A stretch of DNA of 64,000 bases. Source: Eledone cirrhosa. Its lineage: Eukaryota. The notes below the pieces were generated by a model, which saw only the letters and a program-made list of their open reading frames with translations, was not told the DNA's origin and made no database searches. The translations under genes were made by a program, and so were the position numbers. Within the stretch, counting starts at the first letter, position 1. Every line of letters begins with the position of its first letter. Shown here piece after piece: positions 5,541-61,514 of the stretch. The stretch covers positions 27,652,001 through 27,716,000 of the forward strand of contig OZ024758.1 in the NCBI GenBank assembly GCA_964016885.1. Reading direction: 5' to 3'.

Positions 5541-5925
5541 GCGGTGGATTGGCAGTATCGGTAGAGGGTCGGACACCATGCTTTGACGCATAGAGTTGCG
5601 GCCCTTGCCATTCTGAGTTCAAATCCCGCCGAGGTTAACTTTGCCTTTCATCCTTACGGGGTCGATAAAATAAAGTACCAGTAATGCACTGGGATAATTG
5701 CTGGCCTTGTGCCAAAGAGTAGAAACAATTATTATTATTATGGATTGGCAGTATCGGTAGAGGGTCGGACGCCATGCTTTGACGCATAGAGTTGCGGCCC
5801 TTGCCATTCTGAGTTCAAATCCCGCCGAGGTTAACTTTGCCTTTCATCCTTACGGGGTCGATAAAATAAAGTACCAGTAATGCACTGGGATAGTTGCTGG
5901 CCTTGTGCCAAAGAGTAGAAACAAT
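5541..5925 (+). mobile_element. Tandem pair of tRNA-derived SINE family A (~190 bp each)
   Basis: A-box-like tggcagtatcggt, B-box gagttcaaatcc, (att)n-type tail; two near-identical units. Confidence 0.9.
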
Positions 5926-15279: not shown

Positions 15280-15805
15280 TTGGCAGTATCGGTAGACGGT
15301 CGGACGCCATGCTTTGATGCATAGAGTTACGGCCCTTGCCATTCTGAGTTCAAATCCCGCCGAGGTTAACTTTGCCTTTCATCCTCACGGGGTCGATAAA
15401 ATAAAGTACCAGTAATGCACTGGGATAATTGCTGGCCTTGTGCCAAAAGTAGAAACAATTATTGGTAGAGAGTCGGACACGATGCTTGAAAGCATGGAGT
15501 TACGTCCCTTTATGATCTGAGTTCAAAACCTGCTGAGGTTAACTTTGCCTTTCCTCCTTACGGGGTCGATAAAATAAAGTACCAGTAATACACTGGGATA
15601 ATTGCTGGCCTTGTGCCAAAAGTAGAAACAAGTATCGGTAGAGAGTCGGACACCATGCTTGGAAGCATGGAGTTACGTCCCTTTACGATCTGAGTTTGAA
15701 TCCCACTGAGGTTAACTTTGCCTTTCATCCTTACGGGGTCGATAAAATAAAGTACCAGTAATGTCCTGGGTAATTGCTGGCCTTGTGCCAAAATTAGATA
15801 CAATT
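15280..15805 (+). mobile_element. Three tandem SINE family A copies nested in a TTAA-CCC MITE
   Basis: MITE sequence is interrupted at ~15280 and resumes at ~15805. Confidence 0.85.
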
Positions 15806-16431
15806 ATTTATTTTGAGAACAATACCTTAACATTGGTAAGAGCGACCATTAGTCTGATTATGGCTGGTTTGAACAGAAAGCGGTGAGAGAATTCTGGCTG
15901 GATTCAGCCGGTTTAAATGCTTGATGCATTGAGAGGTTGAAAGTTAAATGTTTACTTGAACAGTATGGTAGTCTATTGTAGGAATATTTTTTTCTGGAGC
16001 TTCTGACATTTCCAACAGAAAAGTATTCTCTACGAAGATGCAATGAAGTGTCTACACAACATTTCACTTCATAAACCATAAGATGATAGTCCAATAATTA
16101 AGCCATTTAGCCATTTCCATTGCACGACATGTACAAGATGTTTATTCTTATTTGAGTACTTCTTTAATAATCTTGTGAAATGTGATATGCATAAAATATT
16201 TCAGTAGTGGTTCCACAATGGCTGGACTACTGACTAAAGGTCAAATGGTCGAATTTTACTAACAATTATGATCCAAAACAAAGCAGTAAAATTATTTAAT
16301 GGAAGGAAGGCAATGTTCATGAATCACTTTCAGAGGTTTAGGGATGCTGCCCTTTCTCTTTACCCAAATGTTTGTAAAAGGTGTGGACACTGCTAAAGGC
16401 ACCCATGGACTGAGTGAATGTATTAGACTAG

Positions 16432-16876: not shown

Positions 16877-17670
16877 AGCCTCTAGGAAATAATTGTTTCT
16901 ACTTTTGGCACAAGGTCAGCAATTACCCAGTACATTACTGGTACTTTATTTTATCGACCCCGAAAGGATGAAAGGCAAAGTTAACCTAGGCAGGAGTTGA
17001 ACTCAGTCCGTAAAGGGACGTAAATCCATGCTGGAAAGCATGGAGTCCGACCCTCGACCGATACTGCCAATCCACTGCAGGCATAAAGAAGAGAAGAGAA
17101 CACACATGCCTTGTACACCTTTACCGTTGTCTTCTTGCATATGTCTCGCCGACCCCAGAGTCGCCTTTCTAGCTTTCCGAAAGCATCTCTTGCTTTCCTA
17201 ATCCTGAGTGGGATTTCCCTATCAAAGTTGCTGAATCGATTGACAGTGCTTCCCAGGTAGACAAACTGACCAACCACTCCAAGTCGTTTCCCATACACAC
17301 AGCCTCTAGGAAATAATTGTTTCTACTTTAGGCACAAGGTCAGCAATTACCCAGTACATTACTGGTACTTTATTTTATCGACCCCCGTAAGGATGAAAGG
17401 CAAGGCTGACCTCGACAGGATTTGAATCCAGAACCTAAAGGGCCATAACTCTATGCTGCAAAGCAAGGTGTCTGATGCACTAACAATAATTGTTTCTACT
17501 TTTGGCACAAGGCCAGCAATCACCCCAGTTATTTACTGGTACTTTATTTCATCGACCCTGTAAGGATGAAAGGCAAAGTTAACCTCGGTGGGATTTGAAC
17601 TCATATCATAAAGGGACGTAACTCTATGCTTCAAAGCATGGTGTCCGATCCTCTACCAATACTACCAATC
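16877..17670 (-). mobile_element. SINE-A / RTE fragment / two SINE-A cluster
   Basis: 17075-17300 is a close copy of LINE segment 19008-19230; flanked by SINE-A copies. Confidence 0.8.
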
Positions 17671-46161: not shown

Positions 46162-46214
<53 letters not shown>

Positions 46215-46290
46215 CGAAGGAAATGTGGTAAGGAACCAGGTGGACCATAACGCACCAAAGTACTCAATACTTGAGGTAGTAGAGTGGGTA

Positions 46291-46510
<220 letters not shown>

Positions 46511-47038
46511 TATATATAGACATATATATATAGACATATATATATATATAGACATATATATATATATATAGACATATATATAGACATATATATATAGACA
46601 TATATATAGACATATATATATATAGACATATATATATATAGACATATATATATATAGACATATATATATATAGACATATATAGACATATATATATAGATA
46701 TATATATAGACATATATATATAGACATATATATATAGACATATATATATAGACATATATATATAGACATATATATTTATAGACATATATATATATAGATA
46801 TATATATATATAGACATATATATATATAGACATATATAGACATATATATATATAGACATATATATATAGACATATATATATATAGACATATATTTTGAGT
46901 ATATGTTGGTTGTATACCAACACCTCAGTATGCAGGCTGGAGCACTCGACGAAGTGCGCAGGTTGGTTTGGTTACTCCGCAGTAGTGTAAAATAAAGTTA
47001 AATAAAAGACAAATGATTAAAATTTAGCTTCGTTTATT

Positions 47039-47093
47039 ACTGCTATATATATTTCAGTGACAGCCATCTTTGGCTGTGACCTCTTCAGGCAGT
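47039..47093 (-). ncRNA. Minimal type I hammerhead ribozyme
   Basis: actgc-CTGAAGA-ggtcacagcc-aaagat-ggctgtcact-GAAA-tatata-TA-gcagt, followed by AATAAA. Confidence 0.78.
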
Positions 47094-47214
47094 TTGAATT
47101 AGTATGGTATAGACAAGTACATATGTTGTTTAGGTGTATAATATTGTCAATACTCTGATATGCCCAGTTCCTTGTTGGGTTGTTATTTCACTGAGGATAC
47201 TTCTTGTTTTAATT

Positions 47215-47252
47215 GCCCTGATGAGTCCTTAATAGGACGAAACATTGTTGGC
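47215..47252 (+). ncRNA. Minimal type I hammerhead ribozyme
   Basis: gcc-CTGATGA-gtcct-taat-aggac-GAAA-cattg-TT-ggc, followed by AATAAA. Confidence 0.8.
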
Positions 47253-47342
47253 TAATAAAGACTTTTGATGTATTGAAGGCTTCTTTGTTTTACTTTCATA
47301 AATATATATATATATATATAGACATATATATATATATCTATA

Positions 47343-47380
<38 letters not shown>

Positions 47381-47398
47381 TATATATATATATATATA

Positions 47399-47434
<36 letters not shown>

Positions 47435-48042
47435 TATATATATATATATATAGACATATATATATATATCTATAGACATATATATATATATATATATCTA
47501 TAGACATATATATATATATATATATCTATAGACATATATATATATATATATATAGACATATATATATATATATATATATAGACATATATATATATATATA
47601 TAGACATATATATATATATATATATATAGACATATATATATATATATATATAGACATATATATATATATATATATAGACATATATATATATATATATAGA
47701 CATATATATATATATATATATAGACATATATATATATATAGACATATATATATATATATATATATAGACATATATATATATATATATAGACATATATATA
47801 TATATATATATAGACATATATATATATATATAGACATATATATATATATATATAGACATATATAGAGACATATATATATATATATATATAGACATATATA
47901 TATAGACATATATATAGACATATATATATATATATATATAGACATATATATATATATATATATATAGACATATATATATATATATATATAGACATATATA
48001 TATATATATATATATATAGACATATATATATATATATATATA

Positions 48043-48080
<38 letters not shown>

Positions 48081-48114
48081 TATATATATATAGACATATA
48101 TATATATATATATA

Positions 48115-48152
<38 letters not shown>

Positions 48153-48188
48153 TATATATATATAGACATATATATATATATATATATA

Positions 48189-48266
<78 letters not shown>

Positions 48267-48828
48267 TATATATAGACATATATATATAGACATATATATA
48301 TATATAGACATATATATATATATATAGACATATATATAGACATATATATATAGACATATATATAGACATATATATATATAGACATATATATATATAGACA
48401 TATATATATATAGACATATATATATATAGACATATATATATATAGACATATATATATATAGACATATATAGACATATATATATAGATATATATATATAGA
48501 CATATATATATAGACATATATATATAGACATATATATATAGACATATATATATAGACATATATATTTATAGACATATATATATATAGATATATATATATA
48601 TAGACATATATATATATAGACATATATAGACATATATATATATAGACATATATATATAGACATATATATATATAGACATATATTTTGAGTATATGTTGGT
48701 TGTATACCAACACCTCAGTATGCAGGCTGGAGCACTCGACGAAGTGCGCAGGTTGGTTTGGTTACTCCGCAGTAGTGTAAAATAAAGTTAAATAAAAGAC
48801 AAATGATTAAAATTTAGCTTCGTTTATT

Positions 48829-48883
48829 ACTGCTATATATATTTCAGTGACAGCCATCTTTGGCTGTGACCTCTTCAGGCAGT
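48829..48883 (-). ncRNA. Minimal hammerhead, second copy
   Basis: Identical to 47039-47093. Confidence 0.76.
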
Positions 48884-49004
48884 TTGAATTAGTATGGTAT
48901 AGACAAGTACATATGTTGTTTAGGTGTATAATATTGTCAATACTCTGATATGCCCAGTTCCTTGTTGGGTTGTTATTTCACTGAGGATACTTCTTGTTTT
49001 AATT

Positions 49005-49042
49005 GCCCTGATGAGTCCTTAATAGGACGAAACATTGTTGGC
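49005..49042 (+). ncRNA. Minimal hammerhead, second copy
   Basis: Identical to 47215-47252. Confidence 0.78.
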
Positions 49043-49134
49043 TAATAAAGACTTTTGATGTATTGAAGGCTTCTTTGTTTTACTTTCATAAATATATATA
49101 TATATATATATAGACATATATATATATATCTATA

Positions 49135-49210
<76 letters not shown>

Positions 49211-49575
49211 TATATATATATATATATAGACATATATATATATATCTATAGACATATATATATATATATATATCTATAGACATATATATATATATATATA
49301 TATAGACATATATATATATATATATAGACATATATATATATATATATATCTATAGACATATATATATATATATATATATAGACATATATATATATATATA
49401 TATATAGACATATATATATATATATATAGACATATATATATATATATATATAGACATATATATATATATATATATAGACATATATATATATATATATATA
49501 GACATATATATATATATATATATAGACATATATATATATATATATATAGACATATATATATATATATATATAGAC

Positions 49576-49606
<31 letters not shown>

Positions 49607-49756
49607 TATATATATATATATAGACATATATATATATATATATAGACATATATAGAGACATATATATATATATATATATAGACATATATATATAGACATA
49701 TATATAGACATATATATATATATATATATAGACATATATATATATATATATATATA

Positions 49757-49792
<36 letters not shown>

Positions 49793-49886
49793 TATATATA
49801 TATATATAGACATATATATATATATATATATATAGACATATATATATATATATATATATATAGACATATATATATATATATATATA

Positions 49887-49924
<38 letters not shown>

Positions 49925-50026
49925 TATATATATATAGACATATATATATATATATATATAGACATATATATATATATATATATATAGACATATATATATA
50001 TAGACATATATATATATATATATATA

Positions 50027-50064
<38 letters not shown>

Positions 50065-50088
50065 TATATATATATATATATATATATA

Positions 50089-50150
<62 letters not shown>

Positions 50151-50154
50151 TATA

Positions 50155-50188
<34 letters not shown>

Positions 50189-50197
50189 GACATATAT

Positions 50198-51815
50198 ATC
50201 GACTTGGAGAAAGCCTTCGACAGAGTCCCCCGCTCCATTATCTGGTGGGCTCTTAGAAAACTAGGCGTTGACGAATGGCTTGTGAGGGCTATACAAGCCA
50301 TGTATAAAGAAACAGTCAGCAAGGTTAGAATTAACAACGAATATAGTGAAGAGTTTAGCGTAAAAGTCGGCGTCCATCAGGGCTCTGTTCTCAGTCCACT
50401 ACTATTTATTATTGCCCTTCAGGCCATAACAGAGGAGTTCAAGACAGGCTGCCCATGGGAACTCCTATACGCAGACGACCTGACACTCATAGCGGAATCA
50501 ATGGCCGAGCTAGAGAAGAAATTCCAAACATGGAAGCACGGCCTAGAGTCAAAAGGACTTAAAATTAACCTGGCTAAGACCAAAGTACTAGTTTGTAGGA
50601 AAGAAAACAAGGCGGCGGTCCCTTCTGGGAAATGGTCGTGCTCGGTGTGTAGGAAAGGCGTAGGTAGAAACTCCATTTTATGTCCTAAATGCAAAGTATG
50701 GGTGCATAAAAGATGTAGTGGGATCACAGGTAGGCTAACTAAGAACATAGATTTTACATGTGGCCGGTGCTCTGGTGCAATAAGTAGCAGCAAGTGCCCA
50801 CAAACTACTAGCTCTTTCAATTGCGCAGAGGGTTCTATAGAAATAGTGGACAGCTTCCGTTACCTGGGCGATAAAATCAGCAGTGGGGGAGGGTGCTCTG
50901 AAAGTACTGTAGCTAGAGTCAGAACTGGTTGGAAAAAGTTCAGAGAGCTTATACCACTATTAGCTGCTAAAGGGTTCTCACTAAAAATGAAAGGCAGGTT
51001 GTACGATGCCTGCATACGAACAGCAATGCTGCATGGCAGTGAGACCTGGGCATTGTGTGCAGAGGATATACGCAGACTAGAGAGGAACGAAGCTTGCATG
51101 CTCCGCTGGATGTGTAACAGTAATATACGTGAACGGCAAAGCATAAACGAACTAAGGAATAAATTAGAGATAAGAGGGATCAGATGTTGTTTACTCGAGA
51201 GAAGGCTACGTTGGTATGGACACGTGATGCGCATGAAAGTCGATAGCTGTATAACAAAGTGCAGGGCAATAAAGATAGACGGTAGTCACGGAATAGGCAG
51301 ACCTAGAAAAACCTGGGACGAGCTGATAAACTCCGACATCACACACTTACACCTCTCCAAGACAATGTCACTGGACCGAGACCTTTGGCGGTACTCAGTA
51401 ACAGAGAAGACCCGCCTTACCTAAATATATAGTAAAACCTACTCCAGCCAGTAGGCATCTCTAACAAATACACCCCGTCCCACCACCCCCACCCGATCCA
51501 CACCACCCCGTTCTATGTAAAGTTATGTTGGTGCCGCGCCATCGAGGCCGAAACAAATGAGATCGTGTAGGTGTCACGACAAAAAAACACACAGTCCACG
51601 CTGTAATGTGGCCGTGTAGGCAACACGGTAAAAACCTCCCAGACCCACACTGTAAATGTGGTTGGTGTTAGGAAGGGCATCCAACTGTAGAAAACCTGCC
51701 AGACAGTCCTATGCGAGCAAGACAATCACTCTTGCCTCAAGTGGGACTACCCCCGTCCAAACCCATGCAAGCGTGGAACACGGACGTTAAACGCTGATGA
51801 TGATGATGATGATGA
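50198..51815 (+). mobile_element. 5'-truncated RTE-like LINE; open RT C-terminal ORF 50204-51424 with PHD-like insert
   Basis: [45 protein letters not shown] in one frame; 3' UTR ends in (tga)n; flanked by TA satellites. Confidence 0.93.
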
Positions 51816-60666: not shown

Positions 60667-61040
60667 GGATTGGCAGTATCAGTAGAGAGTCGGACACCAT
60701 GCTTTGAAGCATAGAGTTACGTCCCTTTACGATCTGAGTTCAAATCCCGCCGAGGTTAACTTTGCCTTTCATCCTTACGGGGTCGATAAAATAAAGTACC
60801 AGTAATGTACTGGGTAATTGCTGGCCTTGTGGCTAAAATAGAAACAATTATTGGTGGATTGACAGTATCAGTAGAGGGTCGGACGCCATGCTTTGATGCA
60901 AAGAGTTATGTCCCTTTACGATCTTAGTTCAAATCCCGCCAAGGTTAACTTTGCCTTTCATCCTTACGGGGTTGATAAAATAAAGTACCAGTAATGTACT
61001 GGGTAATTGCTGGCCTTGTGCTTAAAGTAGAAACAATTAT
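60667..61040 (+). mobile_element. Tandem pair of SINE family A
   Basis: Near-identical to 5541-5925. Confidence 0.88.
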
Positions 61041-61514
61041 TAAAATGTAGACTTTCAATGACTGGTTACAGGAAATAAAAATTTCAGCCGATATAAATAT
61101 TTACATAGAGTTTATGGTGTGATGTTATAATGATTTTAATGTGTCAATAAATATATATGTAACTAAAAAACATCTCCCTTTCTACCACCCTTCCGGAAGC
61201 AACCAAACCGCACACTATCTTTAACTGAAACCACCTCATTGAAGTAATGGACACATACCTTCCTTGCCTGCTAATACAACAAGCCATTAAATCCCCCTAT
61301 TGCACACCCTACTCAGAACAGAGAGGGTTCTTCAGATGGGACTATGACCAACAATCTTTCTAGTGATGGTGCCACGAAAATGCACCCGGTACACCCCGTG
61401 GGGGTGGTTAATGGCAGGAAGCTCCCCCACCCTGCTGTAGAAACCAGGCTAAAATGGTTGATAGGACTCTTCAGTTGTGTCAATGAGACAACAACATCTC
61501 TAGTGTTGCTGATG

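Follow-up and report, generated by a model that had tools for sequence, protein, structure and literature searches.

Two hammerhead motifs of opposite polarity at one Eledone cirrhosa locus: a probable fusion of the 3' ends of two PLE families

The window analysed here, a stretch of 64,000 nt of Eledone cirrhosa DNA along which all positions are counted, contains a 409-nt unit (46894-47302) that carries one hammerhead motif on each strand and is almost certainly composed of the 3' ends of two different PLE families, A and B. We consider it probable that these two ends became joined 5'-to-5' via a deletion in a common (TA)n tract, and that the product was then duplicated together with its satellite. 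The initial annotation of this DNA had put forward an ambisense retrozyme-like mobile element as its main reading of the unit and, as a simpler one, two PLE 3' ends that were fused 5'-to-5' and then duplicated in place; the data favour the second of these.

Both hammerheads, both AATAAA signals and the repeat at +1790 that had first drawn attention to the locus are present, and the segment is laid out as follows:

46399-46893, unstranded: (TA)n / TATAGACA satellite to the left of copy 1, belonging to the duplicated segment
46894-47197, minus strand: 3' end of PLE family A, 5'-truncated, matching intact-frame copies at their 3' ends with 98% identity
47039-47093, minus strand: hammerhead of family A, cut predicted between 47044 and 47043, AATAAA at 47038-47033
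47197, unstranded: A/B junction, a single base common to both halves
47197-47301, plus strand: 3' end of PLE family B, 5'-truncated, 105 nt, tailless, with dispersed copies 99-100% identical
47215-47252, plus strand: hammerhead of family B, cut predicted between 47249 and 47250, AATAAA at 47254-47259
47303-48683, unstranded: 1,381 nt of intervening satellite, comprising the right tract of copy 1 and then the left tract of copy 2
48684-49092, unstranded: fused unit, copy 2, identical, with hammerheads at 48829-48883 (minus) and 49005-49042 (plus)
49093-50199, unstranded: satellite right of copy 2, like the tract right of copy 1, differing in unit number and length

The second copy of the unit is 100% identical to the first, and exact identity between the two extends over 623 nt (46698-47320), satellite included. 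Within the unit, the A half of 304 nt is made up of a pseudo-LTR of 210 nt (46988-47197) and a tail of 94 nt (46894-46987), and it meets the B half with neither a TA spacer nor a fold-back remnant. The GC content of the unit is 36%. The earlier statement that it lacks a credible ORF is borne out, as no non-satellite frame overlapping the unit exceeds about 100 aa.

The minus-strand motif consists of a stem I of 5 bp, CUGAAGA, a stem II of 10 positions (one of them a C-C mismatch, with G-U as the closing pair), GAAA, a palindromic UAUAUA and UA, and the plus-strand motif of a stem I of 3 bp, CUGAUGA, a stem II of 5 bp, GAAA, CAUUG and UU. When a type I descriptor was run over the 64-kb window it returned four matches, which are exactly the two motifs in both copies; in 40 Markov-simulated windows it returned a mean of 0.1 matches (maximum 1), and among 5,000 simulated units none had a descriptor match on both strands. 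Rfam at its gathering score found no hammerhead. On RF00163 the plus motif reached 29.1 bits (E 8.8e-5), below the gathering score of 34, and the minus motif was absent among the 72 Rfam-model matches listed. The minus motif is carried by other family A copies too, and AATAAA lies 4-5 nt past each predicted cut in the same arrangement as in the parent elements. The hammerheads and their AATAAA signals are probably passengers of the two pseudo-LTRs.

That two families are involved is indicated by the distribution of each half in the organism's own 3.0-Gb genome. A search with the whole unit gave 60 matches, none of which extends past unit position 306 outside the window, and a search with the right 105 nt gave a separate set of 42 matches; at 56 non-window loci from among the best matches to either half, the halves were joined in none (0/56). 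In exact-match searches, which for that reason may miss diverged copies, the hammerhead core of family A (a 17-mer, subfamilies included) occurs 8,796 times genome-wide and that of family B (a 31-mer) 2,295 times. By the same kind of search, a 22-mer over the junction has two matches in 3.0 Gb and the arrangement of an A-reverse core followed by a B-forward core within 40-300 nt has two matches genome-wide, all of them within this window. Whether the two halves always travel together had been proposed as a check on the unit, and the outcome is that they belong to separate families joined only in the window's two copies. Both families terminate in (TA)n. Contigs from four public runs, representing three organisms, have loose ends at 47197 and 47200 and continue into the parent sequences; among the contig pieces listed, which come from 4 of 22 runs, none bridges the junction, a result that carries no weight either way. 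The public runs listed included no RNA run with the sequence, which has no bearing on expression. The junction and the duplication are known from one assembly.

Longer copies connect the A and B ends to coding regions, and so allow the parent elements to be described. In six regions chosen for long frames, family B has an ORF of 915-916 aa in every case, with the order pseudo-LTR, tail, ORF, pseudo-LTR in five of the six; the B half of the unit is 90-96% identical to the pseudo-LTRs of these copies. Four regions chosen in the same manner for family A yielded five frames, three of them full (890-894 aa) and two 5'-truncated, and three of the four regions contain a sequence that matches the A end of the window at 98%. 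The A and B proteins are 38-39% identical across about 900 residues. The description of the two halves as unrelated thus holds at the DNA level, where they differ, and fails for the parent proteins, which are homologous.

Both parents have a single ORF in which an RT (YRDD) is followed by a C-terminal GIY-YIG domain (YIG), and in both the CxCX5C linker is present, CCHH is absent, and CxxC and CxH surround conserved E and N residues, with the one exception that B frame L188 has lost CxH through an altered C-terminus. RWK is found in two of the three full A frames and DKT in all three, while all six B frames have DKT together with RWR, a conservative variant. A hammerhead inside the pseudo-LTR, a tail and insertion into (TA)n are further features of both parents, which are about 4.2 kb (A) and about 5 kb (B) in length and are present in thousands of copies. 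The Hydra clade of C-terminal-endonuclease PLEs is described as having RWK, DKT, CxCX5C, GIY-YIG without CCHH, hammerheads and (TA)n targets (PMC8557442). Both parents share this motif set, the 3' hammerhead and the (TA)n targets, and we regard A and B as putative Hydra-clade PLEs, assigned by motifs; Pfam gave no RT match on the parent fragments and scored GIY-YIG below its cut-off (E 0.0015-0.0036, in two of five parent fragments). They differ from the clade in their length of about 4.2-5 kb, as against the generally <3 kb that is given as a tendency of Hydra-clade elements (PMC8557442), and in their thousands of copies, and the unit itself differs in holding truncated 3' ends only. A Neptune-like label for the parents was dropped on comparison with the published Hydra definition, and Naiad identity was ruled out by the C-terminal position of the endonuclease.

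The satellite between the copies accounts for 77% of the 1,790-nt period. Comparison of the left tracts shows 12 consecutive units that match before the counts begin to differ, and the right tracts differ more. Because satellite has been copied on both sides, the duplicated object is a 1.8-kb segment ending in satellite and not the 409-nt unit, and duplication by unequal exchange fits this arrangement. It is possible, if somewhat doubtful, that copy 2 is instead an assembly artefact in which two alleles of a satellite-rich locus have been set in tandem, a question that is independent of the origin of the junction. The two copies show no substitutions in 409 nt, their exact identity lies inside low-complexity DNA, and apart from the unit number and length of the satellite they are the same, as alleles would be. 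A recent unequal crossover accompanied by slippage predicts the same pattern, however, and the right-hand tracts differ at many units.

Several other repeats lie in the window. A third hairpin element, also embedded in TA sequence, lies at 46214-46398; its arms measure about 50 bp and its single tail about 80 nt. It has matches in 48 of 172 loci with a turn-back place that is nearly always identical, and no hammerhead core was found in it. From about 50200 to 51424 on the plus strand, a 5'-truncated non-LTR retrotransposon begins at the satellite edge and encodes an RVT_1 domain (E 3e-22) with a PHD finger downstream of it (E 2e-6). A SINE-like repeat of 173-196 nt occurs in tandem at 5545-5925, 15287-15807, 17312-17661 and 60667-61041, and some B copies carry a piece of it in their 3' UTR.

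An ambisense retrozyme-like element, whose tandem copies would release circular RNAs of either polarity and which would be spread by PLE machinery, is a highly improbable reading of the unit. The motifs are intact and stand twice in tandem on each strand, an arrangement in which dimeric cleavage is possible in principle (PMC4209133), and the predicted folding energy of a dimer is lower than that of two monomers for both A (-43.8 vs 2 x -16.7 kcal/mol) and B (-24.0 vs 2 x -10.6 kcal/mol). Like animal non-LTR retrozymes, as these have been characterized, the unit is low in GC, has no ORF, derives from PLE pseudo-LTR sequence and repeats its type I hammerheads in tandem (PMC7229834; bioRxiv 10.64898/2026.07.22.740005). 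Against this, PLE hammerheads are reported to cleave poorly in vitro (PMC4209133), the position of AATAAA just past each predicted cut is that of the parents, and the halves are plain truncated pseudo-LTRs. The period of 1,790 nt, most of it satellite, compares with published animal retrozyme units of about 170-400 nt with canonical motifs (PMC7229834), and lies outside a range of about 170-450 nt taken for a non-LTR retrozyme monomer. The unit further differs from such retrozymes in having motifs on both strands and in being known here from genomic DNA. A retrozyme is recognized by type I hammerheads in at least two tandem units and by a dispersed family of the unit; the former are found at +1790, in one assembly, and in place of the latter there is a junction at one locus, exact-match searches having revealed no second locus in 3.0 Gb. 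The halves are 3' ends from two different PLE families, joined at this locus only, which is the refuting condition set in the initial annotation, and a retrozyme-like mobile family is, as judged from the genome sequence, already refuted for this assembly. In two other loci, L098 (1921-2859) and L047 (159-1101), hammerheads of other families occur in tandem every 469 nt, and in size these tandems are a far better match to animal non-LTR retrozymes than the window unit is.

Viroid-like circular RNAs carry ribozymes in both polarities, and the unit is like them in having one hammerhead motif per strand. It is unlike them in being a genomic DNA chimera of two retrotransposons, and in its predicted fold, which is 62% and 51% paired in scattered short hairpins with no rod. 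A compact, self-paired circular genome is not what the locus presents, as the period is mostly (TA)n, and nothing points to RNA-to-RNA replication of the unit. The locus appears to be ordinary retrotransposon debris, one of at least 14 apparently chance fusions of PLE ends, which has been locally doubled.

The back-to-back arrangement of hammerheads is itself commonplace in this genome. Within 40-300 nt of one another, A cores stand back to back with A cores at 1,362 loci and B cores with B cores at 88 loci. In the literature, PLE insertions are described as often consisting of an inverted, 5'-truncated copy with a tail at one end (PMC8557442), and dual minimal hammerheads on opposite strands, 100-700 bp apart, were reported in 2014 (PMC4209133). 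At over 1,400 loci for these two families alone, back-to-back hammerheads are routine, and in genomes of this sort the pattern therefore does not point to a viroid-like RNA. The window resembles these inverted pseudo-LTR insertions in having its hammerheads back to back, its 3' ends directed outward into microsatellite and one of its arms tailed, and it differs from them in that its arms come from two families.

Same-family hairpins nearly always have one tail. Among 41 same-family arm pairs, exactly one tail is present in 39 and none in one, the remaining pair being a false pairing of non-adjacent arms; in a positional sample consisting of the first 30 matches of each family, exactly one tail is present in all 22 same-family hairpins once the false pair is dropped. 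The sample also revealed a preferred place for truncation in family A, in that 15 of the 30 sampled copies (L083-L112) begin or make their hairpin turn no more than about 12 nt away from one ATATG site, which lies about 110 nt upstream of the hammerhead and may represent a transcription start or a microhomology with the TA target. The A breakpoint at the window junction lies 11-13 nt inside this common place. One inverted A/A insertion, L197 (G000:C28:119676000-119685500), is 7.7 kb long with a tail on one arm only, and has an intact frame of 893 aa on one arm and a frame of 772 aa on the other.

Cross-family joins of the kind seen in the window occur elsewhere with other partners. Other hammerhead families sharing a common motif are back to back with A at 20 loci and with B at 8. 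Of these 28 pairs, 12 have no TA spacer (longest TA run between cores <=6 nt), a proportion of direct joins that is enriched by the 300-nt gap limit, and in the remaining 16 the TA spacer measures 8-52 nt. Read by eye, breakpoints and partners differ among all 12 direct joins, including joins of the same two families that gapped alignment bridges in some cases. Together with the window and an additional spacer-free join, L137, from the positional sample, this gives a total of at least 14 direct cross-family joins, a floor because only partners with one motif were searched. Two families of like target pile up in shared TA tracts: among 55 hammerhead pairs there are 13 convergent and 7 tandem cross-family neighbours, with TA runs of at least 16 nt in all 20. 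Literature searches turned up no title concerned with PLE joins between families, a weak hint that none has been published, and the treatments of opposite-strand hammerhead pairs in PMC8557442 and PMC4209133 do not say, in the portions bearing on such pairs, whether cross-family cases are included.

In the 14 direct joins, tails are present on both arms in 4, on one arm in 6 and on neither in 4, with scoring done partly by eye (L157 was corrected, and L137 was entered from the positional sample). The one-tail rule is thus kept in 6 of 14 cross-family joins compared with all 22 of the same-family hairpins (Fisher p = 1e-4, or p = 1.6e-4 when the window and four tail-only arms are left out), in a test that was post hoc and devised with the data already seen. 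Such a tail pattern is what might be expected of independent arms. Moreover, in 5 of the 12 direct joins (L146, L147, L148, L157 and L161, by eye) a stub of A's own inverted arm precedes the foreign sequence.

The formation of PLE inverted ends and tails is described as unresolved in published work (PMC8557442, PMC11167929). For the window, the likely order of events is that A was followed by B beside it, and then by a deletion that fused the two. In this model, A would land first, probably as the usual hairpin with a tailed arm and an inverted arm, and B would be primed next, in an adjacent TA tract. The 5' junction of B, or a later repair at the hairpin, would then remove the second A arm along with the TA spacer, after which unequal exchange in the satellite would copy 1.8 kb. 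The A-arm stubs are expected under this model, because the second element replaces the end of an existing hairpin, and they favour a sequential origin over a single event.

Some features of the locus do not sit easily with a deletion. The window junction has no stub or spacer and hence no record of a deleted arm, its one tailed and one tailless arm are like those of a normal single-event inverted insertion, and direct joins in 12 of 28 pairs are many for secondary deletion. Both window arms are young (98-100% identity to other copies) and could be simultaneous in age. These points, along with the clean junction with its one shared base, would suit a single integration event involving two RNAs, in which a (TA)n site is cut on both strands, the A and B cDNAs are joined and duplication comes after; purified PLE protein is reported to nick and extend both strands in vitro (PMC11167929). 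We consider such an event unlikely, however, as the retained A-hairpin stubs call for extra steps, the one-tail rule is not kept by cross-family joins, and there is 1 A-B event compared with about 690 expected under random arm pairing (by hand arithmetic), so that a one-event product would have to be a rare leak. Mixed tails fit two independently primed RNAs equally well and therefore do not separate the two models. An argument that took the one-tail layout of the window as proof of a single event was dropped, as other cross-family joins show all tail combinations.

Our preferred reading of the window thus remains the sequential one, with deletion in a shared (TA)n tract. It is similarly improbable that the joins between families that lack a spacer, of which this genome has at least 14, are as a group single events in which two PLE ribonucleoproteins prime one (TA)n break. 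If this were true, they would provide natural proof that the arms of a PLE inverted insertion can stem from separate RNA molecules, as well as a route to two-polarity hammerhead units in animal genomes. The cross-family joins of this genome, with a tail pattern unlike that of same-family hairpins, have a small mechanistic value, and A and B, as young, high-copy Hydra-type elements with intact frames, are suited to in vitro work. In genomes of this kind, two hammerheads that face opposite ways within a few hundred bases are what PLE insertion routinely produces.
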